A stretch of DNA of 64,000 bases from Gaiellaceae bacterium (GTDB taxonomy: Bacteria; Actinomycetota; Thermoleophilia; Gaiellales; Gaiellaceae), in contig DASRCE010000002.1 of assembly GCA_035653275.1 (NCBI GenBank), positions 13,267 through 77,266 on the forward strand, in the 5' to 3' direction. The notes beneath the pieces are model-generated. The model was given only the letters and a program-made list of their open reading frames with translations, did not search any database and had not been told where the DNA came from. Below, piece by piece: positions 22,601 to 63,100 of this stretch (within the stretch, counting starts at the first letter, position 1; each line of letters begins with the position of its first letter). The translations under genes and the position numbers were made by a program.

Positions 22601-23015
22601 GCGGCAGCGAGCGCTCCGGGAGCTGCACCGCGAAGCCGTCCAGCACGATGCCGTAACGCTCCTGGACCTGCGCCTGCGGGATCGCTTGCCGGACGGCCGC
22701 GGCCACCGCGTTCTGGCGCGCACGCAGCCCCGCGAGGTAGGCCTGAGCCGACGCGGTGTGCACGTTCAGCCGCTGCGTCACCGCTGCGGACGCGAGCGCG
22801 CGGTCGGCGTTCCAGGCCGCGAGCGGCGGCGACGCGAGCCGCACGATCACGCGCGTAAGGCCGCGGCTCTGGCCGCGCGGGATGACGAGGTCGCCTGCGC
22901 GCACCCGGCCGAGCCCGGCCTCGCGGGTCTCGCGCCGAATCGGTGTGAGCTTCGCCGAAGCGGCGGCGGTGACGACGAGCGCGGCCGCCGCGGTCAGGAG
23001 CACGGAACGGCGCAA
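19635..23015 (-). CDS. Secreted S8 (subtilisin-like) serine peptidase with a PA-domain insert and C-terminal Ig-like region
   Basis: Catalytic triad contexts VVDTGVD, HGTHVAG and GTSMATPHVAGAAALL. PA-like segment GKILLVSRGDCTFASKA. Signal peptide RRSVLLTAAAALVVTAAASA with a likely TTG start at 23015. Confidence 0.85.
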   Translation of the reverse strand: MRRSVLLTAAAALVVTAAASAKLTPIRRETREAGLGRVRAGDLVIPRGQSRGLTRVIVRLASPPLAAWNADRALASAAVTQRLNVHTASAQAYLAGLRARQNAVAAAVRQAIPQAQVQERYGIVLDGFAVQLPERSLPRLLRVRGVTKVYPSLSYFSTMDRGPSVIHAPELEAATGDKGQGIKIAVVDTGVDPTSPFLNPAGFQYPPGFPKGDGKLTTPKVIVAKVFPGYPRDRHSTDAFDPTEPHGTHVAGIAAGDEGTNAPAGLDHPAVANLSGVAPKAWIGNYRVFTVPTPLGHEANTPEIVAAFEAAVADGMNVINFSGGGPQTDPANDAMFETIHNVSLAGVVPVVAAGNDREDFGFGTAGSPGVAPDAISVAATSNAHVFAPALSVVNGPPALGAVPIQGAGGAKLPTAWATADQTIVDVSSIMGTDGKPVESHLCGSASEPNTAIGTLPSGSVKGKILLVSRGDCTFASKAARAQLGGAIGIILVDNRFGEANPIPIRLQIPAGMIADLDGAQLRAYMAQNGGQATIRVSSGIEEIPTGRSGIITSFSSAGPTDFGWFLKPDIAAPGLDVLSSTPPLTTGSTFSVFAGTSMATPHVAGAAALLLERHPSWTAPEVKSALMSTAGPAWQDTARTQEASVLLEGAGLTNVLAADDPKIFTDPESLSFQRIDVSHGAQRKSLLFTIADAGDGAGTWTVSVAPQAQTNGVVIDVPPTVSVAPGGFVGVPVTVTAAADAATGENYGFVTVTGDGVVRRIPYAFLVERPALANVPDVPLSKLQVGDTAKGPNRVSVYCCPAEPFGPPPGYVGAPMNEDGSETLYSFTVDRPIVNFGVSVLAETAGAVVDPFVLGSKDENDVQGYAGIPTDVNPLTFDSNLDIGAAGVQFPRLQTFYVAVDSRADPFTGRSQKGRYLLNAWVDDLTGPAVRILTTRISAGRPLVVAQAVDAQSGVDPLSLVINYDHALVGASAYDPGTGLAVFGIPRAAPAFSAGRTPLTLRASDYQEAKNINTFGDQIYPNTTFERVRLTVVNGPTVSWIAPAARACVRARDELLVVAESTSKVRGVAFAVDGRRIGVDRSGRSGVYSHAWRTTKLTAGRHRLVATVTDAAGRTAAATQLVRVCG

Positions 23016-23055
23016 GGTCCCGCACAGTATCCGAAGGCGGTTAGCATCGCCTGCG

Positions 23056-23826
23056 ATGTTCGCCGGCAAGCGCGCACTCGTCCTCGGCGTCGCGAACCGG
23101 CGCTCGATCGCGTGGGCGATCGCGCGCCGGCTCGCCGAAGGCGGCGCGCAGATCGCGTTCACGTTCCAGGGAGAGCGCATCGAGAAGAACGTGCGTGAGC
23201 TGGCGGAGTCCGTGTCGAGCCCGCTCGTGACGGAGCTCGACGTCCGCGAGGACGCCGCGATCGAGCGCGTGTTCTCGGAGACGGCGTCGGTGTTCGGTGG
23301 GCAGCTCGACATCCTCGTTCACTCCGTCGCGTTCGCGGCCGCCGAGGACCTCGAGGGACGCTTCACCGATACGCCCCGCGACCGGTTCTGGATGGCGCTC
23401 GACGTCAGCGCGTACTCATTGGTCGCGACGGCGCGCGCCGCCGAGCCGCTGCTGGAGGCCGCAGGTGGCGGGTCGATCGTGACGATGACGTACCTCGGCG
23501 GCGAGCGCGCCGTGCCGCACTACAACGTGATGGGGGTGGCGAAGGCGACGCTCGACTCGTCGGTGAAGTACCTCGCGTGGGACCTCGGGCAGAAGAACAT
23601 CCGCGTGAACGCCATCTCGGCGGGGCCGGTGCGCACGCTCGCCGCCCGCTCGATCGCAGGCTTTCCGACGATGGAGTCGATCGTCGAGGAGCGGGCGCCG
23701 CTCCATCGCCACATCGACGCCGACGACGTCGGCGCGGCGGCGGCGTTCCTGCTCTCGGACGACGCCCGCAACGTGACGGGTACGACGCTGTACGTCGACA
23801 GCGGGTACCACTCGATGGGCATGTGA
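23056..23826 (+). CDS. fabI: Enoyl-ACP reductase (NADH)
   Basis: GKRALVLGVANRRSIAW, and the YNVMGVAKATLDSSVKYLA catalytic Y/K region. Confidence 0.93.
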   Translation: MFAGKRALVLGVANRRSIAWAIARRLAEGGAQIAFTFQGERIEKNVRELAESVSSPLVTELDVREDAAIERVFSETASVFGGQLDILVHSVAFAAAEDLEGRFTDTPRDRFWMALDVSAYSLVATARAAEPLLEAAGGGSIVTMTYLGGERAVPHYNVMGVAKATLDSSVKYLAWDLGQKNIRVNAISAGPVRTLAARSIAGFPTMESIVEERAPLHRHIDADDVGAAAAFLLSDDARNVTGTTLYVDSGYHSMGM

Positions 23827-24502: not shown

Positions 24503-25942
24503 GTGGCCTTCCGGCTCGCTCCCGCGCGTCGCCCGGCCGTGAGCGACGGCGCGATGATCGCGACCAGCCACGTGCTCGCGACGCGCGCGGGCGTTCGCAT
24601 CTTCGAGCTCGGGGGGAACGCCGCCGACGCGGTGCTCGCGGCCGCCGCCGTGCTGTGCGTCGTCGAGCCGATGTCGACCGGCGTCGGCGGCGACGCGTTC
24701 GCGCTCGTCTGGCACGACGGCCGGGTCGCAGGGCTGGACGCCGCGGGTCCCGCACCGGCGGACGCCGCGCCCACCGCGCCGGTCGCCGAGGCGGGGCCGC
24801 GGTCGGTCACCGTTCCGGGCGCGGTCGCCGGCTGGGCCGAGCTCGCCGAGCGGTTCGGGCGCCTCGGGCTCGACCGGTGCCTCGCCGACGCGATCGACGT
24901 GGCGGCGCGCGGCGCCCCGGTCGCTCCGCGCGCCGCCTCGGCGTGGACGGCGGGCACCCCGTGCCCTCCCGAGCTCGGCCCGCGCGCGCCGAACGTCGGC
25001 GACCGCGTCGCCTTCCCCGAGCTCGCCGCGACGCTCCGCCGCATCGCGGAGGACGGGCCCGCTGCCGTGTACTCGGGTGCCGTGGCGCGGGCGATCGCGT
25101 CCGCTTCCTGGCTGACCGAGGGCGACCTCGAGCGGTATGCGCCGCGCTGGGTCGAGCCGCTCCGCCGGCGCTATCGCGACGCCGAGGTCCTCGAGCTGCC
25201 GCCGCCCACGCAGGGCGTGGCCGCGCTCGAGGGCCTCGGGCTGCTGGAGCTCGGCTCGCCCGACCTGGCATCGCAGGTGGAGTGCGTGGCGCTCGCGCTG
25301 GAGGACGCGTTCGCGTACGTGCGCGACGGCGCCGACGTCGCGTTCCTGATCGACGACGCTGCCCTGCGGCGCCGCCGCGCGGCGCGCACCGCCGCTGTGG
25401 GCGGCGGGACCGACGACACCGTCTACCTCTGCGCCGTCGACGGCGACGGCCTCGCCGTCTCGTTCATCCAGAGCCTCTATCAGTCGTTCGGCTCGGGCGT
25501 CGTCGCGCCCGAGACCGGCATCGTCCTGCAGAACCGCGGCGCGTGCTTCGCCGTCGACGGCGCCGTCACACCGGGCCGCCGTCCGTACCACACGATCATC
25601 CCGGGGCTTCTCCTCCGCGGCACGGAGCTGCTCGGGCTGTTCGGCGTCGTCGGCGGGTTCATGCAGGCGCAGGCGCACGTCCAGCTCGTCTCGGGGCTCG
25701 TCGACGAGGGGCTGGACCCCCAGGCGGCGCTCGACCGCCCGCGCTTTCGCCTCGAGGGCGGGGCGGTTCGCCTGGAGGAGGGGCTCTGGGATCGCGCGGA
25801 CGAGCTGCAGCGGCTCGGGCACCGCGTCGAGCGGGCGACGGAGCCGCTCCAGTTCGGCGCCGGGCAGGCGATCGTCCGGCGCGGCGGCGTGCTCTACGGC
25901 GGCACCGATGCGCGCGCCGACGGCGCCGTCGGCGTGGCGTGA
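24503..25942 (+). CDS. Gamma-glutamyltransferase family protein
   Basis: GGNAADA, TGVGGDAF, and the autoprocessing region GGGTDDTVYLCAVD. Confidence 0.88.
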   Translation: MAFRLAPARRPAVSDGAMIATSHVLATRAGVRIFELGGNAADAVLAAAAVLCVVEPMSTGVGGDAFALVWHDGRVAGLDAAGPAPADAAPTAPVAEAGPRSVTVPGAVAGWAELAERFGRLGLDRCLADAIDVAARGAPVAPRAASAWTAGTPCPPELGPRAPNVGDRVAFPELAATLRRIAEDGPAAVYSGAVARAIASASWLTEGDLERYAPRWVEPLRRRYRDAEVLELPPPTQGVAALEGLGLLELGSPDLASQVECVALALEDAFAYVRDGADVAFLIDDAALRRRRAARTAAVGGGTDDTVYLCAVDGDGLAVSFIQSLYQSFGSGVVAPETGIVLQNRGACFAVDGAVTPGRRPYHTIIPGLLLRGTELLGLFGVVGGFMQAQAHVQLVSGLVDEGLDPQAALDRPRFRLEGGAVRLEEGLWDRADELQRLGHRVERATEPLQFGAGQAIVRRGGVLYGGTDARADGAVGVA

Positions 25943-25957
25943 CCGCGCTTCCCGCGG

Positions 25958-27022
25958 TCAGGCGATCTCGGCGACGAGCGACTCCACGTTCACGGCGTAC
26001 ACCTTGACCGGAACGCTCTTGCCCTTCACCTGCAGCTCGCCGTGCGGCTCCACGGCGATCTCGCGGTCGAGCCCGTTGCGCGTGTGCTCGTCGATCAGGA
26101 TCGGGCGGCCGAGCTGCTTCGTGTGCGCCTCGAGGCGCGCGGCGACGTTGACCGTGTCGCCGACGCAGGTGTACGTCGCGCGCTGCTGCGTGCCCGTGTA
26201 ACCCGCGACGACCTTCCCCGAGGCGATGCCGACGCCGATCTGGATCTGCACCTTGTCGCGCGCAGCCTGCTCGTCGTTGAAGAGGCGGATCAGCTCGACC
26301 ATCTGGCAGGCGGCGAGCACCGCTCGCTGCCGGTGGTCGTCGCGCGGCAGGGGGGCTCCGAAGATCGCCATCAGGCCGTCGCCGACCATCTGGTTCACGA
26401 TCCCGCCTTCGCCGCCGATCGCGTCCATCATCAGCGTGTAGTAGTCGTTCAGGAGCTCGATCGTCTCCGACGGCTCGCGCGCTTCCGCGATCGACGTGAA
26501 CGAGCGGATGTCGCAGAACAGCGCGGTCGCGTCGACGTGCTTGCCGCCGAGCGAGAACCCGGAGGTGAGGAGGTCGTCCGCCACCTCCTTCGTCGCGAAC
26601 TTGCTGATCAGCTCGCGCTGCTGGTCGCGCAGCCGCTTCTTCTCGAGGCTCGCGCTGATGCGAGCGTTCAGCAGGACCGGGTTGATCGGCTTCGTCAGGT
26701 AGTCCTCGGCGCCCATCTCGACGCACTTGACGACGCTGTCGAGCTCGTCGAGCGCCGACGTCACGATCACCGGGATGTCGCGCAGGCGCGGGTCGAGCTT
26801 CATCTCGGCGAGCACTCCGTACCCGTCGAGCTCGGGCATCACGACGTCCAGCAGGAGCAGGTCGAAGTGGTCGCGGCGCAGAAGGTCGAGCGCGTCGCGG
26901 CCGTGCTCGGCGAACACGACCGTGTGACCCTGGCGCTCGACGCCGCGGCCGAGGAGGAGCCGGTTCACGCGGTTGTCGTCGGCGATCAGGATCGTCCCCG
27001 GCGCGGCGCCGGCTGCGCTCAA
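25958..27022 (-). CDS. Response-regulator receiver fused to a class III adenylate/guanylate cyclase
   Basis: REC domain: ILIADDN...LLLLDVVMPELDG...KP. Cyclase domain: ATALFCDIRSFTS...VNQMVGDGLMAIFGAP...YTCVGDTVNVAARLE. TTG start in a TTGA overlap with the kinase stop. Confidence 0.88.
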   Translation of the reverse strand: MSAAGAAPGTILIADDNRVNRLLLGRGVERQGHTVVFAEHGRDALDLLRRDHFDLLLLDVVMPELDGYGVLAEMKLDPRLRDIPVIVTSALDELDSVVKCVEMGAEDYLTKPINPVLLNARISASLEKKRLRDQQRELISKFATKEVADDLLTSGFSLGGKHVDATALFCDIRSFTSIAEAREPSETIELLNDYYTLMMDAIGGEGGIVNQMVGDGLMAIFGAPLPRDDHRQRAVLAACQMVELIRLFNDEQAARDKVQIQIGVGIASGKVVAGYTGTQQRATYTCVGDTVNVAARLEAHTKQLGRPILIDEHTRNGLDREIAVEPHGELQVKGKSVPVKVYAVNVESLVAEIA

Positions 27023-30000
27023 CGCGGAACCCCCGGACGCAGTGCCGCGAGTGCGTTCTCGAGCGTCTCGTACTCCTGCTCGATGCGCGCGACGACGCCC
27101 GCCGCTCCGTCGAGGCGGCCCTCCCTGGCGCGCTGCTCGAGCTCGCGGCACAGCTCGGTGAACTCGCCCGCCCCGAGCGTGGCGCCGTTCGACTTCAGCG
27201 TGTGCGCCGCGCGCCGGAGCTCGTCGGTGCCGTGGTCGTCGAGCGAGCGTCTGAGCGTCGCGAGCAAGTTCGGCGCGTCCGCCAGGAACGCGTCGATCAC
27301 CTCGGTCAGGAACTCGTCGCCGCCGAGGTCTCGGAGTGTGGAGAGGGCGCCTTCGTCGAGACGGCCGTCGGCGGGCGCTCCCGTGACCGGTCTCGCCCGG
27401 TCCAGCGCCTCGGCCAGCTCGTCGGGCCGGATCGGCTTCGCCACGTAGTCGTCCATGCCCGCCGCGAAGCACGCCTCCCGGTCCTCCGGGAGCGCGTTCG
27501 CCGTCATCGCGATGATGCGCGGCCGGGTCTCGGGCGGCCAGCGGTCGCAGATCCGGCGGGACGCGTCGAGCCCGTCGAGCTCCGGCATCTGCACGTCCAT
27601 CAGCACCACGTCGTAGCGCTGCCGCTCGAGCGCCTCGAGCGCCTCGACCCCGTTCCAGGCGACGTCGGCGCGATACCCGAGGCGATCGAGGAGCCGGAGC
27701 GCGACCTTCTGGTTCACCGCGTTGTCCTCGGCGAGCAGGATGCGCAGCGGCGACGCCGCCGGCTTGGCTTCCGCGACGGGCTCGCCGGGCTCCGGCTCCG
27801 GCAGGTGCTCCGCGAGCGCCTTCACGAGCGCGTTGTAGAGCTGCGAGGCCCTGACGGGCTTCGCGAGCTGCACCTCGAACGCCCCCGACGACTGGGCCTG
27901 CGGCAGCCGCCCGAGCGAGGTCAGGAGGACGAGCGGGAGCTCGCGCGCGTCGCGGTGCTTCCGGATCGCGTGCGCGAGGGTGAGCCCGTCCATCTCCGGC
28001 ATCATCATGTCGAGCACCGCGACGTCGAACTTCTCGCCCCGCTCGATCGACGCCAGCGCCTCGACGGGCGACGCGATCGCCACCGGCTCCATGCGCCAGG
28101 CGCGCGCGTGCCGCGTGACGATCTCGCGATTCGTCGCGTTGTCGTCCACGACGAGCACCCGCTTGCCTTCGAGCTGGGGCGCGTCGCCTTCCTCGATCCG
28201 GGCCGGCACCTTCGCCTCCTTCGCCGTCAGCTCGATGTGGAACGTCGAGCCCTCGCCTTCCGTGCTCTCGACCCACATCGCGCCGCCCATCAGCTCGACG
28301 AGCCGCTTCGAGATGGCGAGCCCGAGCCCGGTGCCGCCGTACCGGCGCGTCGTGGACGTGTCGACCTGGCTGAAGGACGTGAACAGCCGGCCCATCCGGT
28401 CCTCCGGGATCCCGATGCCGGTGTCGCGGACGGCGACGTGCAGCCGGCAGGCGTTCTTCTGCGCCGGCTCGGCGTCGACGGTGACGACGACCTCGCCCTG
28501 CTCGGTGAACTTGACGGCGTTCGAGAGCAGGTTGAGCAGGACCTGCCGCAGGCGCGCTGCGTCGCCGACGATTCCCGCCGGCGCGCCCTCGTCGACGAGC
28601 AGCCCCAGCTCGATCTCCTTCTCCCATGCGCGCGGCGCGACGATCTCCAGCGCTCCCTCGATGCACTCGCGGATGTCGACGGGCTCCTTCTCCAGCTCGA
28701 GCTTGCCGGCCTCGATCTTGGAGTAGTCGAGGATGTCGTCGATCACGTGCAGGAGCGCGTCGCCGCTCGACCGGACGACCTCGGCGAACTCGCGCTGCTC
28801 GGGCGTCAGGTCGGTGTCGAGCAGGAGGCCGGTCATCCCGATGACGGCGTTCATCGGCGTCCGGATCTCGTGGCTCATGGTGGCGAGGAACGCGCTCTTC
28901 GCCTGCGTCGCCGCCTCCGCCTCCTCGCGTGCGCGCTGCAGCTCGGTGATGTCGTGGTAGATCGCGTAGAAGCCGACGTGCTCGCCGTCGAAGTGGAGCG
29001 GAACGAGCATCAGCTCGACGTCGACGAGCGTGCCGTCCTTGCGCTCGCGCTGCGCGATGCGCTGCGCGCGCCCGTACTCGAGCGCCTCGCGCGTGAGCTC
29101 GCGGCCTTCCTCCCGATGCCCCTGGTGGAAGACGAGGTCGTCGATCGTGTGGCCCAGCGCCTCGTCCGCCGAGTACCCGAAGAGCTCGGCGGCCGCGGGG
29201 TTCCACCCCGTGACGCGCTCGTCCGCGTCCATCACGACGACCGCGACGGGGCTGACGCCGACGAGCGACTCGAAGAACTGCTTCTGGCGGCGGATCTCGG
29301 CGTGCGTGCGCGCGTTCTGGATCGCGACGCCGACGTTCGCCGCGATCGTCGCGAGCAAGCCGGTCTCCGCCTCGCCGAAGCGACCCTCCTCGTGGATGCT
29401 CTGCACGCTGATCACCCCGATCGCGAGCTCGCCGACGAGGATCGGGACGCCCAGGTACGAGCGCGACGGCGTCCCGACGCCTGCCCGCCCCTCGTACTGC
29501 TCCGCCCGGTTGAGCAGGAGCGGCTCGCGCGACTCGAGAATCTGCGAGGTGAGGCCCTCGCCGTACCGGAGCGGAGGCTCCTGCCGGCGCTCTCCGGCCT
29601 CGTGGTAGTAGACGAAGTCGATGCGCCCAGCCGCCGCGTCGTGCAGCGCGACGTATGCGATGTCGGCGCCGAACGTCTCGCGCACCCGCTCGCCGACCAG
29701 CTCGATCAGCGCGTCGAGCTCGAGCTGCGAGGCGAGCGCCTGCCCGACGCGGTTGACCGTCGCGAGCTCGGCTACGCGCTGCCGCGTCTCGTGGACGAGT
29801 CGCGCGTTGTCGAGCGCGACGCTGAGGCTGCCCGCGAGCGTGGTCAGCAGCCGTTCGTCCGCCTGCGTGAAGGCGTGAGTCCTGTCGACGTTCTGGAGCG
29901 ACACGACTCCGGTCGCGCGCCCTCCGACGAGGAGGGGGACGAAGAGGGCCGACTTGATCGGCTCACCGCTCAGCACGTACGGGTTGCCGTAGCGCTCCGC

Positions 30001-32352
30001 GACCTCCGGCACCGAGTCCTCGATCATCAGCGGCTCCCGCGTCTCCATCACGTGCTTCCGGAAGCCGATCAGCGGAATCGGGGCCTCCTCCAGCCGCTCG
30101 CCGCGCTCGATCACGTACGGGAACGTGAGGACCTCGGCCTGCTCGTCGTAGACGGAGATGCTCACGACCTGCGCGTCGAAGACCTCCTGCAGCTTGTCGC
30201 CGACGAGGTCGTAGATCGCCTGCGGGTCGAGCTCGCCGGCGATCGCGGCCTGGACGCTGTTGATGAGCGCGAGCTCGGCGTTCCGCTGGCGCGTCTCGTG
30301 CACCAGCCGCGCGTTCTCGAGCGCGACGCTGAGGCTGCCGGCGAGCGTGGTCAGCAGGCGCTGGTCAGCGTCGCTGAAGGCGTGCGTCCTGTCGAGGTTC
30401 TGGAGCGAGATCACGCCCGTCGCGCGGCCGCTGACGATGAGCGGGACGAAGAGATCCGACTTCGCCGGCTCGCCCGTCAGCACATACGGGTTGCCGTAGC
30501 GCTCCGACTCCTCGGGTGTGACCTCCGGGACCATCAGCGGCTCCCTCGTCTCCATGACGTGCTTGCGGAAGCCGATCAGCGGGATCGGCTCGTCGGGGAA
30601 CCGGATGCCGCGCTCGATCGCGTACGGGAAGTGGATCAGGCCCGACGGCTCGTCGTAGATGCCGATGTCCACCACCTGCGCGTCGAAGACCTCCTGGATC
30701 CGGTCGCCGACGAGGTCGTAGATCGCCTGCGCGTCGAGCTCTCCCGCGATCGCGGCCTGGACGCTGTTGATCAGCGCCAGCTCGGCGTTCCGCTGCTGCG
30801 TCTCCTGCACGAGGCGGGCGTTCTCGAGCGCCGCGCTGATGCCGCCGGCGAGCGTCATGAGCAGGCGCTGGTCGGAGTCGCTGAACGCGTGCTCTCGGTC
30901 GACGTTCTGCAGCGAGATCACGCCCGACGGACGGCCGCCGGTGAAGAGCGGGACGAACAGAACGGATTTCGGCACCTCGCCGACGAGCGACATCGGGTTC
31001 CCGTACCGCTCCGCCGCCTCGGTGACGTTCTCGTTGACGAGCAGCGGCTGCCCCGTCTCGAGCACGTGCTTGCGGAACCCGACCACCGGCATCGGCTCGA
31101 CGGCGAAGCGCTCGCCACGCTCCACCAGGTACGGGAAGCTGAGGAGGCCGCTCGCCTCGTCGTAGGCCGAGATGCTGACCGCCTGCGCGTCGTAGACCTC
31201 GGCGACCTTCTCGCCGACGATCTCGTAGATGGCCTGCGGGTCGAGCTGTCCGGCAACCGCGGACTGGACGGTGTTGATGAGCGCGAGCTCGGCGTTCCGC
31301 TGCCGCGTCTCGTGGACGAGTCGCGCGTTCTCGAGCGCGACGCTGAGGCTCTGCGCGAGTGTCTCGAGCAGCTGCTGGTCGGACGCCGCGAACGCGTGCT
31401 CGCGGTCGATGTTCTGCAGCGAGATCACGCCGGTCGCCTTGCCGCCGGCGACGAGCGGCACGTACAGGACCGACTTCGGCATCTCGCCCTGCAACACCGG
31501 GTTGCCGTACCTCTCCGCTGCGCCTGCGACGTCCTCGTCGAGCAGGAGCGTCTCGCGCGTCTCGATCACGTGCCGCCGGAACCCGATCAGCTCGATCGGC
31601 TCGTCGGGGAAGCGGACGCCGCGCTCGATCGTGTACGGGAAGTGCAGGAGCGCGGTCGCCTCGTCGTAGATGCCGATGTCGACGACCTGCGCGTCGAAGA
31701 CCTCCTGGAGCTTGTCCCCGACGACGTCGTAGATCGCCTGCAGCTCGAGCTCGCCGGCGAGCGCCTCCTGCACGCTGTTGATGAGCGCGAGCTCTGCGTT
31801 GCGCTGCCGCGTCTCCTCGATGGCGCGCGCGCGCGAGAGGGCTGCGCCGACGTGCTGCCCCACGAACGCGAGGAGCTCCTTGTCCTGCTCCGTGTACTGG
31901 ACGTCCTTCGTGTACGACTGCACGACGAGGACGCCGACGGTCCGCCCCTCGGCCTTGAGCGGCACGCCGAGCCATGTCGCCTCGGCGCTCGTCACGCCGA
32001 GGAGCGCGACCTCGCCCGCGTCGATCAGCTCGAAGATCCGAGCCGACGTGAGGAGCTGCGGCTCGCCGGTGCGGAGGACATACGCGGTCGTGCCGCGCGC
32101 TTCCCCGGTGCCGAGCGCGTCCCAGCGGTTCGGGGCCGGAGGGTCCAAGTCCGACTCGTCGACGTAGTACGGGTAGCTGATGAGCTGCCGCTCCTCGTCG
32201 TAGAGCGCGATGTAGAAGTTCTCGGCGTACATCAGCTCGCCCACGACGGAGTGGACCGCCCGGTAGAACTCCTGCATGTTCTGCGCGGCGCTCGCCAGCT
32301 CCGCGATCCGGAAGAGGGCGCGCTGAACCTGCTCGGACGATGGGGCCGGCAT
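27019..32352 (-). CDS. Hybrid sensor histidine kinase: 6 GAF, PAS, HisKA, HATPase, 2 REC, Hpt (1777 aa)
   Basis: H-box SHEIRTPMNAV, N/G boxes NAVKFT and DTGIGI..GGTGLGLAI, two receivers with DD/D/T/K, and Hpt HTLKSNGATLG. Confidence 0.92.
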   Translation of the reverse strand: MPAPSSEQVQRALFRIAELASAAQNMQEFYRAVHSVVGELMYAENFYIALYDEERQLISYPYYVDESDLDPPAPNRWDALGTGEARGTTAYVLRTGEPQLLTSARIFELIDAGEVALLGVTSAEATWLGVPLKAEGRTVGVLVVQSYTKDVQYTEQDKELLAFVGQHVGAALSRARAIEETRQRNAELALINSVQEALAGELELQAIYDVVGDKLQEVFDAQVVDIGIYDEATALLHFPYTIERGVRFPDEPIELIGFRRHVIETRETLLLDEDVAGAAERYGNPVLQGEMPKSVLYVPLVAGGKATGVISLQNIDREHAFAASDQQLLETLAQSLSVALENARLVHETRQRNAELALINTVQSAVAGQLDPQAIYEIVGEKVAEVYDAQAVSISAYDEASGLLSFPYLVERGERFAVEPMPVVGFRKHVLETGQPLLVNENVTEAAERYGNPMSLVGEVPKSVLFVPLFTGGRPSGVISLQNVDREHAFSDSDQRLLMTLAGGISAALENARLVQETQQRNAELALINSVQAAIAGELDAQAIYDLVGDRIQEVFDAQVVDIGIYDEPSGLIHFPYAIERGIRFPDEPIPLIGFRKHVMETREPLMVPEVTPEESERYGNPYVLTGEPAKSDLFVPLIVSGRATGVISLQNLDRTHAFSDADQRLLTTLAGSLSVALENARLVHETRQRNAELALINSVQAAIAGELDPQAIYDLVGDKLQEVFDAQVVSISVYDEQAEVLTFPYVIERGERLEEAPIPLIGFRKHVMETREPLMIEDSVPEVAERYGNPYVLSGEPIKSALFVPLLVGGRATGVVSLQNVDRTHAFTQADERLLTTLAGSLSVALDNARLVHETRQRVAELATVNRVGQALASQLELDALIELVGERVRETFGADIAYVALHDAAAGRIDFVYYHEAGERRQEPPLRYGEGLTSQILESREPLLLNRAEQYEGRAGVGTPSRSYLGVPILVGELAIGVISVQSIHEEGRFGEAETGLLATIAANVGVAIQNARTHAEIRRQKQFFESLVGVSPVAVVVMDADERVTGWNPAAAELFGYSADEALGHTIDDLVFHQGHREEGRELTREALEYGRAQRIAQRERKDGTLVDVELMLVPLHFDGEHVGFYAIYHDITELQRAREEAEAATQAKSAFLATMSHEIRTPMNAVIGMTGLLLDTDLTPEQREFAEVVRSSGDALLHVIDDILDYSKIEAGKLELEKEPVDIRECIEGALEIVAPRAWEKEIELGLLVDEGAPAGIVGDAARLRQVLLNLLSNAVKFTEQGEVVVTVDAEPAQKNACRLHVAVRDTGIGIPEDRMGRLFTSFSQVDTSTTRRYGGTGLGLAISKRLVELMGGAMWVESTEGEGSTFHIELTAKEAKVPARIEEGDAPQLEGKRVLVVDDNATNREIVTRHARAWRMEPVAIASPVEALASIERGEKFDVAVLDMMMPEMDGLTLAHAIRKHRDARELPLVLLTSLGRLPQAQSSGAFEVQLAKPVRASQLYNALVKALAEHLPEPEPGEPVAEAKPAASPLRILLAEDNAVNQKVALRLLDRLGYRADVAWNGVEALEALERQRYDVVLMDVQMPELDGLDASRRICDRWPPETRPRIIAMTANALPEDREACFAAGMDDYVAKPIRPDELAEALDRARPVTGAPADGRLDEGALSTLRDLGGDEFLTEVIDAFLADAPNLLATLRRSLDDHGTDELRRAAHTLKSNGATLGAGEFTELCRELEQRAREGRLDGAAGVVARIEQEYETLENALAALRPGVPR
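29785..31812. repeat. Four tandem ~507-bp (169-codon) in-frame repeats encoding paralogous GAF modules
   Basis: The DNA block encoding LSVALENARLVHETRQRNAELALIN recurs near 29790, 30296, 30802 and 31308. Confidence 0.8.
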
Positions 32353-32395: not shown

Positions 32396-32425
32396 GGTAC
32401 CAGGTACCGGTGGGTACCTGGTACC
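32396..32425. repeat. Perfect 13-bp inverted repeat GGTACCAGGTACC-ggtg-GGTACCTGGTACC (four GGTACC cores)
   Basis: Read directly from the sequence. It lies between the stop of the membrane-protein gene (32431) and the kinase start (32352). Confidence 0.6.
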
Positions 32426-45265: not shown

Positions 45266-45437
45266 ATCGCTCACCGCGGCATGGCCAGGAACGCGCGCCG
45301 CGGTTCGCATCGCCCAGTGCGCGGGACGCTACCGACGCGCGTTCGCGTCCGGAATAGGCCGAGCGGCCCATCTTTGAAAGAAGGGCGCGTACGCATCCCG
45401 CGGAATACCATTCGAGCACCTCGGACGGGGGAGCCCA

Positions 45438-48400
45438 GTGAGCGACGCAACCCAGGCGGTCCTCTTCAACGGCTTGCCGCTGCTGCTCCTCGCCGCCGCG
45501 TACGCGGCGGTGACCGGCGCCGTGCTGCCGGTGCTGTGGCGCGACCGCGCGACGGCGCACCCGCTCGACTGGGCGATCGTGCTGGTGTTCCCGGGGATCG
45601 CGATCGCGGCCGGGATCTTCGGGGTGCTCGTGATCCACGAGCGGCGGCCGTTCGGCGGCCACACGTGGATCTCGTTCGCCGCCTCGCTCGTCGCGCTCGC
45701 CCCGGTCGTGCCGATCCTCCTCCGGTGGCGTGAGCGGGCATTCGTCGCACGCGGCGTGAGCCGCTCCCTGGACGCCGAGGAGCGCGCGTCGACGCGCGAT
45801 CGCGAGATCGCGGCCGTCTCGCAGATCTCCGCCGCGCTGGCCCGTGCGCGCTCGCCGCTCGAGGTCGCGCGCCCGTTGACGGCCCACGTCGCGCGGCTGC
45901 TCGGGGTCGGCTTCGTCGGAATCGCCGTCGTCGACGACGACGGGGCGGAAGCCGAGGGTCTCTACGCGCTCGCGCACGGCGAGGAAGCGGGATGGTGGAC
46001 GGGCATCCGGACCGACCTACGCCACGAGCCGTCCGGCATCGCGAGCGCGTACTTCGACGCGGCGCCCGTGACCGTCTACGACGTGTCGAGCTCGCCGCTC
46101 GTGAGCGCGCGGCTGGCGAAGCTCGTCGGTGCCTACAGCGGCGCCTGGGTCCCGATGATCGCGGAGGAGCGCGTCGTCGCCGTACTCGCGCTCGCGTCGA
46201 CCGACGACAAGCGCACGTTCGCGAACGACGAGCTGTCGCTGTTGCAGGCGGTCGCCGCCGAGGGCGCGCTGGCGCTCGAGCGGCTGCGTTCGGCCAGCGC
46301 GCTCTCCGACGCGCTTCAGCGCGAGCAACGTGCGGCGGAGATCGTCCGCCGCGTGCGCGCGGAGCTCGAGCCCGACGACGTCGTGCGCGTCGCGCGCGAC
46401 GAGCTTCGTGCTGCGTTGAGGCTCGACGCCGTCGCCGTCGACGTCTCCGGCGGCGAGGCGGTCGTCGACGCGCGGCGGGCTCTCCCGCTGACGAGCGACG
46501 AGCAGCACCTCGTCGAGACGGTGCGGTACGAGGTCGGCGCGGCCGTGCGCACGGCGGGGCTCCTCGCCGAGAACCGCCGCCGGCTGGCGCAGCAGGCGGC
46601 GCTGCTTCACGCAGCACAGGTGGTGACGAGCGAGCTCGAGCTCGACGCCGTTCTCGACCGGCTCGTGGAGGAGGTGACGAAGCTGCTGGACGCAGACGCG
46701 GCCGACTGCTACCTCCTCGACCGCGAGCGGAACGTCCTCCGCTGCGCGGCGGTGTACGGGCTCTCGCCGGAGCTCGTGGGGTTCGAGTTCACGCCGGAGC
46801 ACGGCGTGGCGGGCGCGGCGATCGTCGCGATGCGCCCCGTCGCCGTCGACGACTACCAGACGATCGCGGCGCCGGTACCGAACACCGCGTACGAGGGCTT
46901 CTCGCGCGCCCTCGTGGCGCCGATGGTCTGGTCGGGCGAGACGCTGGGCGTGATCGGCGTCGGCGTGCACAACGCGTCGCGGTCCTTCGACGACCGCGAC
47001 GAGGAGCTGCTCGACGCGTTCGCGTCCCTCGCGTCGCTCGCCCTCCGCAACGCCGAGAGCTTCGAAGAGCGCTCGCGCCAGGCGCGCGTGCAGCGCGGCT
47101 TCTACCGCATCGCGTCGCTGCTCGGGGAGCCGCTGTCGTTGGCGGAGGCGTACGACGCGGCCGCGCAGGCCGCCGCCGAGGCGCTCGGCGCGGACTTCGC
47201 GGCCGTCGTCGCCCAGGGCGCCGGCGGCCTCGCGGTCGTCGGCGGCTACGAGCTGCCGCCGGAGGTGCGCGGGCTGCCGATCGCGCGCGCGCTCCTCGAC
47301 GCGGCCGAGGACGGGCACGTTCTCGCTGCGCCTTCGGTCGCCGGCGACGAGCGCTTCGCCGAGGCGTGGCCGGACGTGCCGTTCGCGTCGCTGCTCGCGA
47401 TCCCGGTGCGCGAGCAGGCCGGGCTCGTGCTCGTCTTCTTCAGCGAGGAGCGCAGGTTCGTCCGCGACGACCTCGAGCTCGCGCAGCATCTCGCGGGCGC
47501 GGCACGAGGCGCTCTCGAGCGGAGCCGGTTGTTCGAGGGGGAACGGACGGCGCGCTCGCTCTCGCAGCAGCTGGCGCGCACGGGCAGCCTGCTCGCCACC
47601 GAGCTGGACCCGGCCGCCGTGCTCGAGGCGGTCGTGTCGGAGGCCGCGGAGCTCCTGCACGCGGACGCGGCGGCGCTCGCGTCGCAGGACGAGGACGAGC
47701 TCGTGATCACGGCGGCCGTCGGAGACGGGGCCGACGAGGCGCTCGGCGTGCGTACGTCTGCGACGGCGTGGCCCGCGGGGGACGTCGTGCAGTCGCGGGC
47801 GCCGGTGGCCTACGACGACGCGACGCAGCACGAGACGCTCGCGGAGTCGGACGTCTTCCTCGCGGCCGGTCACGTCGCCTACCTCGGCGTCCCGCTCCGC
47901 GCCCGCGAGGGCGGCACCCACGGTGTCCTGTCGGTGTACACGCGCAACGCGCGCGCGTGGCGCGACGAGGAGATCGAGGCGCTGGTCGCGCTCGCGGCGA
48001 ACGCGTCCGTGGCGCTGACGAACGCCGAGCTGTACCAGCGCGTCGCGCTCGAGCGCGAGCAGAGCGTCGCGATCCTCGCGAACATCGCCGACGGGATCGT
48101 CGCGGTGGACCGCGACGGCCACGTCGTGCTGTGGAACCGAGCAGCCGAGGAGATCACCGGCGTCCCGGCAGTCGAGGCGATCGGACGCACGCCGTCGCAG
48201 GTTCTGCAGCGCGAGCTCCAGTCGGAGCTCGGAGGGACGAACCGGCTCGTCGCGATCTCGCGCGGCGGCGAGGACGTCTGGCTGTCGCTCTCGGAGGCGG
48301 TCATGCGCGACCCGAGCGGCGCGGTGGCGGGTCGTATCTTCGCCTTCCGTGACATCTCGGCCGAGCACGCCGTGGAGCAGATGAAGTCCGACTTCGTCTC

Positions 48401-49049
48401 GACCGTCTCGCTCGAGCTGCGCACGCCGCTGACGTCGATCTACGGGTTCGCGCAGACGCTGCTCCGCGACGACGTCGCGTTCTCCGACATCGAGCGCAAG
48501 ACGTTCCTCGAGTTCATCGCGCGCGAGTCGGAGCGCCTGACGACGATCGTCGACGCGCTCCTCAACGCGGCCCGCCTCGACACCGGCGACCTCGCGGTGT
48601 CGCTCGAGCCGACCGACGTCGCTGCGGTCGTCGCCGACGTCGCCGCGAACGCCTCCGCGTCGCCGAACGGTCACCGGTTCGTCACCGAGGTGAACGGCGA
48701 CGACTGCCGCGCGCAGGCGGACCCGGAGAAGCTCCGACAGGTCCTCGACCAGCTCGTGTCGAACGCCGTCAAGTACTCGCCGGAAGGCGGGACGGTGACG
48801 ATCTCGGCGACGCGGCGCGCTGACGCAGTCGAGGTCGCGGTCGCGGACGAGGGCGTCGGGATCCCGCCGTCGGAGCGCGACCGGATCTTCTCGAAGTTCT
48901 ACAAGGCGGGCGGCGGGCCCGGGACCGGGCTGGGCCTGTTCATCGCGCGCGGGCTCGTGCGGGAGATGGGCGGCCGGATGTGGGTGGAGTCGCAGGAGGG
49001 CACCGGCTCGCGCTTCGCGTTCGAGCTTCCGCCCGCGGAGGATGTGTGA
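45438..49049 (+). CDS. Membrane-anchored multi-GAF/PAS sensor kinase homologue lacking the H-box histidine
   Basis: N-terminal TM helices, about 4-5 GAF-like regions and one PAS domain. The HisKA block reads FVSTVSLELRTPLTSIYGF, where Leu codon CTC replaces the phospho-acceptor His. N, G1, F and G2 boxes are intact. Confidence 0.9.
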   Translation: MSDATQAVLFNGLPLLLLAAAYAAVTGAVLPVLWRDRATAHPLDWAIVLVFPGIAIAAGIFGVLVIHERRPFGGHTWISFAASLVALAPVVPILLRWRERAFVARGVSRSLDAEERASTRDREIAAVSQISAALARARSPLEVARPLTAHVARLLGVGFVGIAVVDDDGAEAEGLYALAHGEEAGWWTGIRTDLRHEPSGIASAYFDAAPVTVYDVSSSPLVSARLAKLVGAYSGAWVPMIAEERVVAVLALASTDDKRTFANDELSLLQAVAAEGALALERLRSASALSDALQREQRAAEIVRRVRAELEPDDVVRVARDELRAALRLDAVAVDVSGGEAVVDARRALPLTSDEQHLVETVRYEVGAAVRTAGLLAENRRRLAQQAALLHAAQVVTSELELDAVLDRLVEEVTKLLDADAADCYLLDRERNVLRCAAVYGLSPELVGFEFTPEHGVAGAAIVAMRPVAVDDYQTIAAPVPNTAYEGFSRALVAPMVWSGETLGVIGVGVHNASRSFDDRDEELLDAFASLASLALRNAESFEERSRQARVQRGFYRIASLLGEPLSLAEAYDAAAQAAAEALGADFAAVVAQGAGGLAVVGGYELPPEVRGLPIARALLDAAEDGHVLAAPSVAGDERFAEAWPDVPFASLLAIPVREQAGLVLVFFSEERRFVRDDLELAQHLAGAARGALERSRLFEGERTARSLSQQLARTGSLLATELDPAAVLEAVVSEAAELLHADAAALASQDEDELVITAAVGDGADEALGVRTSATAWPAGDVVQSRAPVAYDDATQHETLAESDVFLAAGHVAYLGVPLRAREGGTHGVLSVYTRNARAWRDEEIEALVALAANASVALTNAELYQRVALEREQSVAILANIADGIVAVDRDGHVVLWNRAAEEITGVPAVEAIGRTPSQVLQRELQSELGGTNRLVAISRGGEDVWLSLSEAVMRDPSGAVAGRIFAFRDISAEHAVEQMKSDFVSTVSLELRTPLTSIYGFAQTLLRDDVAFSDIERKTFLEFIARESERLTTIVDALLNAARLDTGDLAVSLEPTDVAAVVADVAANASASPNGHRFVTEVNGDDCRAQADPEKLRQVLDQLVSNAVKYSPEGGTVTISATRRADAVEVAVADEGVGIPPSERDRIFSKFYKAGGGPGTGLGLFIARGLVREMGGRMWVESQEGTGSRFAFELPPAEDV

Positions 49050-60125: not shown

Positions 60126-60186
60126 TCGCATCGCCGCCGAAGACGGGATTTGCAGCGGTTGTCAGGTGTCGTAGGCTCGGAGCGGC

Positions 60187-63100
60187 ATGCAGTGCGCGAG
60201 TTGCGGCACCGAGAACGCGGCCGGCAAGAAGTTCTGCGTCGAATGCGGCGCTTCGCTCGCCCGTGCGTGCGAGCGCTGCGGGGCCCCGCTCGGGCCCGCC
60301 GAGAAGTTCTGCGGTGAGTGCGGGGCGGCCGTCGCGGCAGCGGGTCAGCCGCATCGTGCGCCGCCGGCTCCGCCCGCCGCCGCGCCCGAGCCGGCGACGG
60401 AGCGTCGGCTCGTCTCGATCCTGTTCGCCGACCTCGTCGGCTTCACTCCGCTCGCCGAGTCGCGCGACGCGGAGGAGGTGCGCGAGCTGCTCTCCCGCTA
60501 CTTCGACACGTGCCGACGCCTGATCGACGTCTACGGCGGGACCGTCGAGAAGTTCATCGGCGACGCGGTGATGGCGGTGTGGGGCACGCCGGTCGCGACG
60601 GAGGACGACGCCGAGCGGGCCGTCCGGGCGGCGCTCGACCTCGTTGCGGCGGTGGCGGCGCTCGGCCGGGAAGTGGGGGCAGAGAGCCTGCGGGCGCGGG
60701 CCGGCGTCCTCACGGGCGAGGCGGCCGTGAACCTCGCGGCCGTCGGCGAGGGGATGGTCGCCGGCGACCTCGTCAACACGGCATCACGTGTGCAGTCGGT
60801 GGCGGAGCCGGGCACCGTTCTCGTGGGCGAGGCGACGCGCCGCGCCACACAGCGCGCGATCGCGTACGAGGAAGCGGGCGCGTTCCAGCTCAAGGGCAAG
60901 GAGGGGGAGACGCCGTTGTGGCGCGCGCTGCGCGTCGTCTCCGGGCGCGGCGGCGAGCTTCGGTCGCAGGGGCTCGAAGCGCCGTTCGTCGGCCGCGAGC
61001 GCGAGCTCCGCCAGATCAAGGAGCTGTTCCACGTGTGCGCCGACGAGCGCCGGGCGCAGCTCGTGTCCGTCACCGGCGTGGCGGGCACCGGCAAGTCGCG
61101 GCTCTCGTGGGAGTTCTACAAGTACTTCGACGGGATCGCCGACACGGTCTACTGGCACCGCGGCCGCTGCCTCGCGTACGGCGACGGCGTGACGTACTGG
61201 GCGCTCGCCGACATGGTGCGGATGCGCTGCCGGATCGCCGAGGACGAGCAGGCCGAGACGGCGCTGCCGAAGCTCCAGGCCGTCCTCGAAGAGCACATCC
61301 TCGACCCCGACGAGCGCGCGTACGTGGAGCCGCGGCTCGCACAGCTCGTCGGGCTCGCCGGGCACGAGCCGCGCGAGCGGCGAGACCTGTTCGCAGCCTG
61401 GCGCCTCTTCTTCGAGCGCCTCGCGGAGACCTATCCCACCGTGCTCGCTTTCGAGGACATGCAATGGGCGGACGCGAGCCTGCTCGACTTCATCGAGCAC
61501 CTGCTCGAGTGGTCGCGCAACTACCCGCTGTACGTGATCGCGCTCGCGCGCCCGGAGCTCCTCGAGCGCCGGCCGACGTGGGGCGCGGGACTCCGTAACT
61601 TCACGTCGCTGTACCTCGAGCCCCTGCCGCGCGACGCGATGGAAGCGGTGCTCGACGGCCTCGTGCCGGGACTGCCGGAGTCGCTTCGAGAGCAGATCTT
61701 GGCGCGGGCCGAGGGGGTGCCGCTGTACGCGGTCGAGACGGTTCGCATGCTGCTCGACCGCGGGCTCGTGGTGGAGGACGGTCCTGCGTACCGCGTCGTC
61801 GGCGAGGTCGCGTCGCTCGACGTCCCGGAGACCCTGCAGGCGCTCGTCGCCGCGCGGCTCGATGGGCTCTCGCCCGACGAGCGGCGGCTCCTTCAGGACG
61901 CGTCCGTCCTCGGAAAGACGTTCACGTCGGCGGCGCTCGCGGCGCTGGCGGGGCGCGAGGCGCACGAGATCGAGCCCGCGCTGACCTCGTTCGTCCGCAA
62001 GGAGCTGCTCAACGTCCAGCTCGACCCGCGCTCACCGGAGCACGGTCAGTTCGGCTTCTTGCAGGACATCGTCCGGCGCGTCGCCTACGAGACGCTGCCG
62101 CGGCGCGAGCGGCGCGCGAAGCACCTCGCCGCGGCCGAGCACCTGGCGTCGACCCACGGTGAGGACGAGGTGGCAGAGGTCGTGGCCTCGCATCTCGTCG
62201 AGGCGTACCGGCTCGAGCCGGACGCCGACGACGCGGCCGTGCTCCGGATGCGCGCCTTCTCGGCGATGCTCCGCGCCGGTGAGCGCGCCGCGTCGCTGGG
62301 CGCCGCGCTCGAGGCGAAGCGGTACTTCGTGCAGGCAGCGGAGCTCGCGGCCGGGCCCGAGGAGCGCGCGCAGGCGCTCGCGCGGGCGGGTGAGACGGCA
62401 CTGCAGGGCGGCGACCTCGTGGCGGCGGAAGCGCTGCTCGAACAGGCGAGCGAGCTCCACGAGCAGGTGGGCGACGTGCACGCGGCGGCCCGCGTCGCGG
62501 TCAATCTGGCTGAGATCGACGCGACGCTCGGGCGTGTCGAGGAGTCGCTCGACCGCATGGAGCGGGCCTATGCGCGCGTCTCGGACGACGAGGCTGACGC
62601 AGACGTCGCGTATCTCCTCGCCGGGCTCGGCACGGCGCACTTCTTCGCGGGACACCGCGACCGCGCCGCCGAGTTCACGGAGCGGGCGCTCGACGTCGCC
62701 GAGGCGCTGAAGCTGCCCGACGTGCTGTGTCGCGGCTGGAACACGAAGGCGCTTCTCGTCGCGCCGCGGCGCCCGCAGGAGGCGAACGCGCTGTACAGGC
62801 TGGTCCTCGACACGGCCACTGCGCATCAGCTCGACGAGCGCGCAGCGATGACCTGCGGCAACCTCTCCGACAGCTGCTTCCGCGAGGACGACTACACGGA
62901 GTCGCTCGTGTACCTCCAGCGCTCGCTCGACCTCGCCCGCAGGAAGGGCGACCGCTTCGCGGAGTGGTTTGCGCTCAGCGAGCTGAGCTATGCGCTCACC
63001 ATGCTCGGCCGGTGGGACGAGGCGGTCGCCCGGCTTGCCGAGGTGCCCGAGGAGCAGCTCGGCTCGAACACCCTGCTCGGAAGCCCGCTGAACGGCGTCC

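Follow-up and report, generated by a model that had tools for sequence, protein, structure and literature searches.

The window analysed here is a 64,000-nucleotide stretch of DNA (contig DASRCE010000002.1; G+C about 72%) from an uncultured Gaiellaceae bacterium, whose source genome is a 1.5-Mb metagenome-assembled genome (MAG) with a completeness of about 60%. Two overlapping genes on its reverse strand encode a 1777-residue hybrid sensor histidine kinase (27019..32352) and a 354-residue protein in which a receiver (REC) precedes a class III nucleotidyl cyclase (25958..27022), and their best explanation is a two-gene, translationally coupled signalling operon. We propose that a poly-GAF kinase phosphorelay acts on the receiver-cyclase to set the synthesis of a cyclic nucleotide, most likely cyclic AMP (cAMP), a mechanism that the sequence evidence makes probable as a whole. 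The nearest public loci belong to soil MAGs of Gaiellaceae and Gaiellales (Thermoleophilia, Actinomycetota), and the metagenomic orthologues of the 354-residue protein, which number in the thousands at 80-89% identity, are annotated just as 'adenylate cyclase'.

Architecture and conservation of the gene pair

The kinase gene, defined by its open reading frame, translation, Pfam matches and hydropathy, starts with an ATG preceded at 6 nt by a GGAG Shine-Dalgarno sequence, and the absence of a transmembrane segment from the hydropathy profile indicates a soluble product. Pfam assigns to this product, in order, six GAF domains, PAS, HisKA, HATPase_c, two Response_reg domains and Hpt, which bears out the architecture put forward in an earlier sequence-only reading of the locus. 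The six GAF stretches, detected with the Pfam GAF/GAF_2 models (GAF_2 E-value 4e-93), comprise an N-type unit 1 (residues 8-183; 31804..32331) that clades with the first units of orthologues, four internal-type units 2-5 (residues 184-858; 29779..31803) that form modules of 504-507 nt with conserved linker helices between them, and a C-type unit 6 (residues 859-1022; 29287..29778) that adjoins the PAS domain (residues 1027-1139; 28936..29274). The kinase core is formed by the HisKA (DHp) domain (residues 1151-1216; 28705..28902; E-value 5e-21) with the phospho-acceptor His1161 (28870-28872), and by the HATPase_c domain with its N, G1 and G2 boxes (residues 1263-1377; 28222..28566; E-value 2e-32). 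It is followed by receiver 1 (residues 1397-1513; 27814..28164) with Asp1448 (28009-28011), receiver 2 (residues 1538-1650; 27403..27741) with Asp1586 (27595-27597), and the Hpt domain (residues 1684-1767; 27052..27303; E-value 1.8e-15), whose His1717 (27202-27204) sits in the HTLKSNG motif already quoted in that reading. In the partner protein, Pfam places a receiver at residues 11-122 (26657..26992) with the acceptor Asp59 (26846-26848), and a Guanylate_cyc catalytic domain at residues 164-343 (25994..26533). The linker between them (residues 123-163; 26534..26656) aligns with the helical stretch leading into the cyclase domain of the phytochrome-Cya2 chimera 6FHT and is predicted to be helical and transducer-like.

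The phospho-sites of both proteins are strongly conserved, as scored on 60 aligned kinase orthologues and on 80 cyclase sequences. His1161 is present in 59 of the 59 orthologues aligned at the site, one of the 60 rows being gapped, and both Asn1278 and Asp1310 are kept in 59 of 60. The DD-D-T-K set of receiver 1, including Asp1448, is likewise retained in 59 of 60 orthologues, and the full acidic-pocket/Asp/Thr-Ser/Lys set of receiver 2 in 60 of 60. Receiver 2 is the better conserved of the two, and both internal receivers look phospho-competent. The Hpt residues His1717 and Lys1720, three positions apart, are invariant (60/60), as are Asp15, Asp16, Asp59, Thr88 and Lys111 of the cyclase-borne receiver in all 80 sequences. 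The kinase therefore combines all elements of an unorthodox hybrid kinase, namely an H-box histidine with N, G1 and G2 boxes, intact receivers, and an Hpt phospho-histidine with its lysine. These domain E-values and conservation levels are far beyond chance.

The two genes are joined by a stop/start overlap, in which the TGA of the kinase shares the tetranucleotide TTGA (27019..27022) with the TTG start of the cyclase gene; both the sequence and the translation of 354 residues agree with this junction as it was originally described. To place it in context, we used the orthologous loci of the best 80 of 152 relatives among species genomes, which are 79-86% identical to the window. A recognizable Hpt-type C-terminus lies upstream of the cyclase gene in 75 of these 80 loci, and the 4-nt overlap recurs in 74 of the 75 loci that could be scored (GTGA in 69, ATGA in 5). 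The TTG start in the window is supported because the orthologues have GTG or ATG at the same position within the same overlap. Where the upstream frame is long enough, it encodes PAS-HK-REC-REC-Hpt (HK, histidine kinase) at 57-90% identity. By comparison, the genes for a DUF2269 protein, a peroxiredoxin, a gamma-glutamyltranspeptidase (GGT) and an SDR protein (22756-23826) show no consistent linkage to the pair across the orthologous loci. Since the flanking genes change from locus to locus, the kinase and cyclase genes form a conserved unit, and the genetic linkage of orthologous pairs that the sequence-only reading had put up for checking holds at about 75 Gaiellaceae loci.

Catalytic site and probable product of the receiver-cyclase

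The metal-binding residues Asp171 and Asp215 and the transition-state residues Asn292 and Arg296 are invariant in the 80 orthologues and in four distant relatives (G003, G009 and G023, of the same genus-level group, and G028), whose REC-cyclases are 44% identical to that of the window, as befits a class III cyclase. The substrate-specifying residues are less conventional. It has been reported that adenylate cyclases carry Lys/Asp, eukaryotic guanylate cyclases Glu/Cys and Cya2 Glu/Gly, with Thr occurring at the second site in some cyclases of both kinds (PMC4215837). When the protein was aligned by HMMER with solved structures, Gln211 (26390-26392) fell at the position held by Lys in the photoactivated adenylate cyclase OaPAC and by Glu in the guanylate cyclase Cya2, and Thr285 (26168-26170) at that held by Thr in OaPAC and by Gly in Cya2. 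The pair is thus Gln/Thr: the Lys that canonical adenylate cyclases combine with Asp (class IIIa) or Thr (class IIIb) is absent, Thr285 is class IIIb-like, and the guanylate cyclase signature (Glu with Cys, Gly, Ser or Ala) is absent as well. In addition, the window cyclase has an Ala three residues after the Asn, where Cya2 has a Tyr that boosts guanylate cyclase activity (PMC4215837). The catalytic Asp/Asp/Asn/Arg set is thus intact, but the substrate pair is neither Lys/Asp nor Glu/Cys, and the residue check put forward for deciding between cAMP and cyclic GMP (cGMP) as the output returned neither signature.

The Gln/Thr pair is not peculiar to the window. We tallied substrate pairs over 150 representatives of diverse REC-cyclases, sampled from 50%-identity clusters (P numbers), and found K/D in 21, K/T in 19, Q/T in 18 and E/G in 13, with Q/T persisting down to about 48% identity. 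We conclude that the protein belongs to a distinct Gln/Thr clade of nucleotidyl cyclases and is presumably active, most likely as an adenylate cyclase, although its sequence does not itself reveal the product. cAMP appears most likely because of the class IIIb Thr, the Ala in place of the Tyr that favours guanylate cyclase activity, and the lack of a Glu. Weighing against this assignment, the first substrate position drifts among the orthologues (Q73/H3/S2/L2) and is Ala or Gly in the 44%-identity relatives; with Gln in place of Lys and such drift, the assignment to cAMP is weak.

The replacement of the adenine-selecting Lys by Gln makes a relaxed or different specificity a real possibility, in which the relay would operate as proposed while the cyclase makes chiefly cGMP, both purine cyclic nucleotide monophosphates (cNMPs) or another cyclic nucleotide. 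We regard this as possible, if clearly second to cAMP. The Lys is missing here even though 8 of the 12 paralogous cyclases in the same MAG retain it, and the conserved Q/T pair defines one of four large groups of REC-cyclases. Furthermore, the closest solved catalytic domain is that of the guanylate cyclase Cya2 (2W01, E-value 2e-28), and Cya2-like E/G pairs occur in sister architectures. On the other side stand the absence of a Glu from the first position, the Ala that replaces the Tyr of Cya2, and Thr285, a hallmark of class IIIb adenylate cyclases that is nevertheless found in some guanylate cyclases (PMC4215837). As for other cyclic nucleotides, the PADLOC match to the pyrimidine cyclase PycC, at 85 bits, does not exceed the 93 bits of the generic Pfam model and reflects general class III homology alone. 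The neighbouring DUF2269 and GGT genes encode no cNMP-binding effector of the Pycsar kind, and on both grounds a Pycsar system was rejected. A Gln at the first position has a precedent in Mycobacterium tuberculosis Rv0386, which has a Gln/Asn pair and a guanylate cyclase side activity; our search of the open literature returned no residue details for it.

Two of the other cyclase domains in the same genome were also noted. A second class III domain lies within the window at about 60406-60909, inside an open reading frame of about 1180 residues (60175-63723, forward strand), and carries the canonical Lys as its first substrate residue. A paralogous domain outside the window (G000:C10:146247-146759) has Glu at the Lys position and a Pfam score below the cut-off, which makes it a candidate guanylate cyclase.

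The GAF array and its candidate ligands

By protein identity, the six GAF units sort into three types. Unit 1 matches the others at 28-30%, units 2-5 match one another at 65-79%, and unit 6 matches units 2-5 at 37-38%. The same division emerges from a tree of the units of 12 kinases, in which N-type and C-type units form separate clades and the internal units of all genomes mix in a third. To count modules, we accepted as complete only those kinases whose array opens with an N-type unit and closes with a C-type unit, a rule that excludes probable frameshift-cut arrays (IC, IIC, IIIC). The 29 complete kinases have 4-11 GAF domains, that is, 2-9 internal modules, and kinases with 92% identity across the C-terminal 750 residues can be two modules apart. 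An apparent pair at 95% identity with four and nine GAF domains was discarded as an artefact. Many long-read MAG loci (L020, L026, L030, L036, L054, L056, L057 and others) have short kinase frames, with open frames of 80-1100 residues or an array that starts with an internal-type GAF; these are likely single-base frameshift errors in assemblies of a repeat-rich gene rather than true truncations.

Conservation across the array is high. In an alignment of 76 GAF units (74 internal ones), identity reaches 90% or more in some 55 columns, which take in the linker helices as well as numerous polar residues of the core. The structure model of an internal module (predicted local distance difference test score, 93) has long helices at both its N- and C-termini, and a continuous helical spine running through the array would fit this model. 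A recent tandem amplification of a 507-nt module was considered and rejected, since units 2-5 are just 67-76% identical in DNA and 65-79% in protein and Tandem Repeats Finder finds no 507-nt array. The module duplications are old, with ongoing gain and loss. The strong conservation of the internal modules argues that they work as units subject to gain and loss, and that they are not repeats in decay or the product of recent amplification.

What these modules bind is approached through motif and fold. GAF domains are very widespread sensors, the majority of which bind no cNMP. Those that do are marked by the NKFDE motif, mutation of any residue of which abolished cGMP binding in the GAF-B domain of PDE2 (PMC11977230). 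The sequence-only reading had named an NKFDE-like motif as one example of a signature to look for, and it is found in part: units 2-5 read N-[L/I/V]-x5-F-x3-D-[Q/E], units 1 and 6 are more degenerate and also lack the Asn, and the basic residue is absent from all six units, where it is aliphatic (L/I/V) or Tyr. A sequence search of solved structures with an internal module returned DevS/DosS first (weakly, E-value 7e-6) and Lcd1 second (E-value 1e-5). By comparison, the fold search placed the Lcd1 GAF with bound cAMP (5W10) first, with an E-value of 1.9e-11, a template-modelling (TM) score of 0.72-0.74 and 23-26% identity. Several further GAF folds come close to these TM scores or exceed them, including PtsP (0.77-0.79), PDE2A and the heme-binding DosS, and an HD-GYP GAF also comes close. 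Lcd1 is listed as a cAMP receptor (PMC8846402). A heme-binding GAF of the DosS type is unlikely, the query having no His that faces the His-rich loop of DosS in their weak alignment, and a bilin-binding GAF of the phytochrome or cyanobacteriochrome kind was rejected, as residues 1-1022 contain no Cys.

It had also been suggested that the cyclase product feeds back on the kinase, such that cAMP or cGMP would bind one or more GAF modules, tune the kinase and turn the array into a cooperative cNMP sensor. This closed loop is speculative and weakly disfavoured, and we consider it rather unlikely. In its favour, the closest solved fold of the internal module is the cAMP-bound Lcd1 GAF, whose N-basic-x5-F-x3-D spacing equals that of the modules, a GAF-containing kinase neighbours the REC-cyclase in all four distant relatives, and the polar core, more than 90% conserved over the 76 units, argues for a real ligand site. 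It is opposed by the incomplete NKFDE motif, by the comparable or better TM scores of PtsP, PDE2A and DosS, and by relay-to-cyclase designs that have CHASE8-HAMP or PAS inputs and no GAF. In addition, three to four CAP-type cNMP-binding domains occur in the same MAG, and such proteins are ordinary receivers of the product. A bolder version is slightly less probable still: the array would be an adjustable sensor whose 2-9 internal modules bind one ligand, possibly the partner's cyclic nucleotide, with module number setting the cooperativity or threshold of a feedback oscillator or switch, and the cyclases of the Gln/Thr clade might yield something different from plain cAMP.

A CAP-type domain was also seen beside one of the distant relatives. 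At the G028 locus, an MFS transporter that carries a fused CAP-type cNMP-binding domain (L018, G028:C6 6658-8298, reverse strand) is divergent from the 44%-identity REC-cyclase and, from its domains, could be a direct cNMP-gated transporter; a HAMP-GAF-HK-REC kinase lies on the other side of that REC-cyclase.

The proposed phosphorelay and its relation to known systems

The Hpt domain of the kinase is the only one found in the 1.5-Mb, roughly 60%-complete MAG, as compared with 14-15 cyclase domains, and relatives connect Hpt with REC-cyclases in several other ways. In G003, an Hpt gene (183 residues) is followed on the same strand by the REC-cyclase and a PAS-GAF-PAS kinase, and the gene order in G009 mirrors this arrangement. 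In G023, an Hpt gene followed by a PAS-GAFx4-HK-REC-REC gene is divergent from the REC-cyclase. Single polypeptides among unrelated cluster representatives also unite these elements, as HisKA-HATPase-REC-Hpt-REC-cyclase in P0129, REC-Hpt-REC-cyclase in P0146 and CHASE8-HAMP-HK-REC-Hpt(x4)-REC-cyclase, with four Hpt stretches, in P0212. The substrate pair of P0129 is a Cya2-like Glu/Gly, which suggests a phosphorelay-controlled guanylate cyclase. Fusion and neighbourhood in such differing arrangements provide the best non-experimental evidence that Hpt feeds the cyclase receiver. Together with the invariant phospho-sites and the conserved overlap, they give the His-Asp-His-Asp layout ending on a cyclase, first proposed from this locus alone, the standing of a strong inference.

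An alternative is that the Hpt domain serves another response regulator, with the REC-cyclase either phosphorylated directly by the DHp histidine or acting as a phosphate sink. Direct His-to-Asp transfer is how cyanobacterial CyaC works, and Hpt is missing from some relatives, namely P0151 and P0153, which are HK-REC-REC-REC-cyclase chains, and the G028 locus, where none lies beside the REC-cyclase. Moreover, the REC-cyclases P0123, P0154, P0173 and P0177 have one or two N-terminal HisKA (DHp) modules and no ATPase domain; these modules may be built-in phosphotransfer units, and P0123 is 63% identical to the window cyclase and keeps its Gln/Thr pair. At the given MAG completeness, other partners may also be unseen. 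Against this alternative, the Hpt domain lies fused immediately upstream of the REC-cyclase start at about 75 loci, is encoded by a separate gene adjoining the REC-cyclase in G003, G009 and G023, and is fused to it in P0129, P0146 and P0212, and we hold it to be quite improbable. Our open-literature search found no characterized Hpt-to-cyclase relay, and we know of no biochemical study of a His-Asp-His-Asp relay that ends on a nucleotide cyclase.

For the preferred relay from Hpt to the cyclase receiver, we infer the following course, from the input signal through each phosphotransfer step to the direction of regulation and the product. The soluble and presumably dimeric kinase would read a cytoplasmic ligand or state through its six GAF domains and PAS domain, and the conserved helices joining these modules would carry the signal to the DHp/ATPase core, followed by autophosphorylation on His1161. 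The phosphate would then pass to an internal receiver, most likely to Asp1586 of receiver 2, which appears the likelier relay site because it is better conserved and lies directly ahead of the Hpt domain; Asp1448 of receiver 1 may serve as a second acceptor or sink. Thereafter it would move to His1717 of the C-terminal Hpt domain and on to Asp59 of the separately encoded receiver-cyclase, where receiver phosphorylation would rearrange the homodimeric class III cyclase via the helical linker and switch cyclic-nucleotide synthesis. Activation would be the likelier direction, as in CyaC. Several points weigh against this course. The kinase has two phospho-competent receivers, either of which might feed the Hpt domain; a direct step from DHp to the cyclase receiver is possible by analogy with CyaC; and the orthologous loci, at 79-86% identity, come from close relatives, which means that the linkage counts do not represent independent events and overstate independence.

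Receiver-controlled cyclases are textbook elements, as are Hpt relays, and the wiring proposed here is ordinary two-component logic, a design of familiar parts that is common in soil bacteria. The thousands of metagenomic orthologues and the 152 relatives among species genomes attest to its great abundance in soil Actinomycetota and indicate that it is probably a major route of cyclic-nucleotide signalling in uncultured soil bacteria. Its points of note are the Gln/Thr substrate pair and a GAF array whose module number changes fast between species. Newly found here are the three-type array, the range of 4-11 GAF domains among orthologues, the statistics of the Gln/Thr clade and the fold match to Lcd1.

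The pair is flanked in the window by a gene for a DUF2269 membrane protein upstream and by the convergent GGT gene downstream. A perfect 13-bp inverted repeat with GGTACC cores (32396-32425) sits in the interval from the DUF2269 stop to the kinase ATG, which it precedes by about 44 nt; it lacks a T-tract and could be a terminator hairpin or an operator. At the other end, a 7-bp G+C-rich hairpin (GACCGCG/CGCGGTC with a 5-nt loop; 25940-25960) occupies the 15 nt that separate the convergent stop codons of the cyclase and GGT genes and is a possible bidirectional terminator. Promoter and terminator scans at the locus yielded nothing usable. Elsewhere in the window, a large open reading frame of about 1220 residues (45378-49049, forward strand) has a third-position G+C content of coding type.

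Our comparison with known systems starts from single domains. The catalytic domain is closest among solved structures to that of Synechocystis Cya2, with which it shares the metal Asp and Asn/Arg set, while Cya2 differs in having Glu/Gly and the Tyr that enhances guanylate cyclase activity (PMC4215837) in place of Gln/Thr and Ala. The internal GAF module finds its best fold match in Leptospira interrogans Lcd1, with equal N..F...D spacing; Lcd1 has an Arg where the modules have Leu, Ile or Val, and its one GAF domain controls a GGDEF domain. The kinase resembles BarA, ArcB, TorS and EvgS in its HisKA-HATPase-REC-Hpt order and in all phospho-sites. Its best NCBIfam matches are TorS (468.5 against an equivalog cut-off of 676.5), BarA (426.8 against 890) and ArcB (400.3 against 838), each far below the cut-off. 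It differs from these kinases in being cytoplasmic, in its poly-GAF input and tandem receivers, and in having a cyclase enzyme rather than a DNA-binding protein as its partner. A His-Asp-His-Asp relay onto an enzyme of cAMP metabolism is known from Dictyostelium, where DhkA/B/C, the Hpt protein RdeA and the REC-cAMP phosphodiesterase RegA are connected; that system is eukaryotic, its output is cAMP breakdown and its components are encoded by unlinked genes.

The closest characterized system is cyanobacterial CyaC of Spirulina (Arthrospira) platensis and Anabaena, a REC-GAF-GAF-HisKA-HATPase-REC-class IIIb adenylate cyclase. The Spirulina enzyme is summarized in PMC3009899 as a cyclase switched on by phosphorylation of its proximal receiver. 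Both systems have GAF sensors and a histidine kinase, and in both a receiver that retains its acceptor Asp sits right in front of a class III cyclase with Thr as the second substrate residue. By comparison, CyaC is one polypeptide with direct His-to-Asp transfer, whereas the window system is divided between two overlapping genes and has REC-REC-Hpt inserted. Furthermore, CyaC has two GAF domains as against six here and 4-11 in the orthologues, and its adenine-selecting Lys is a Gln in the window cyclase.

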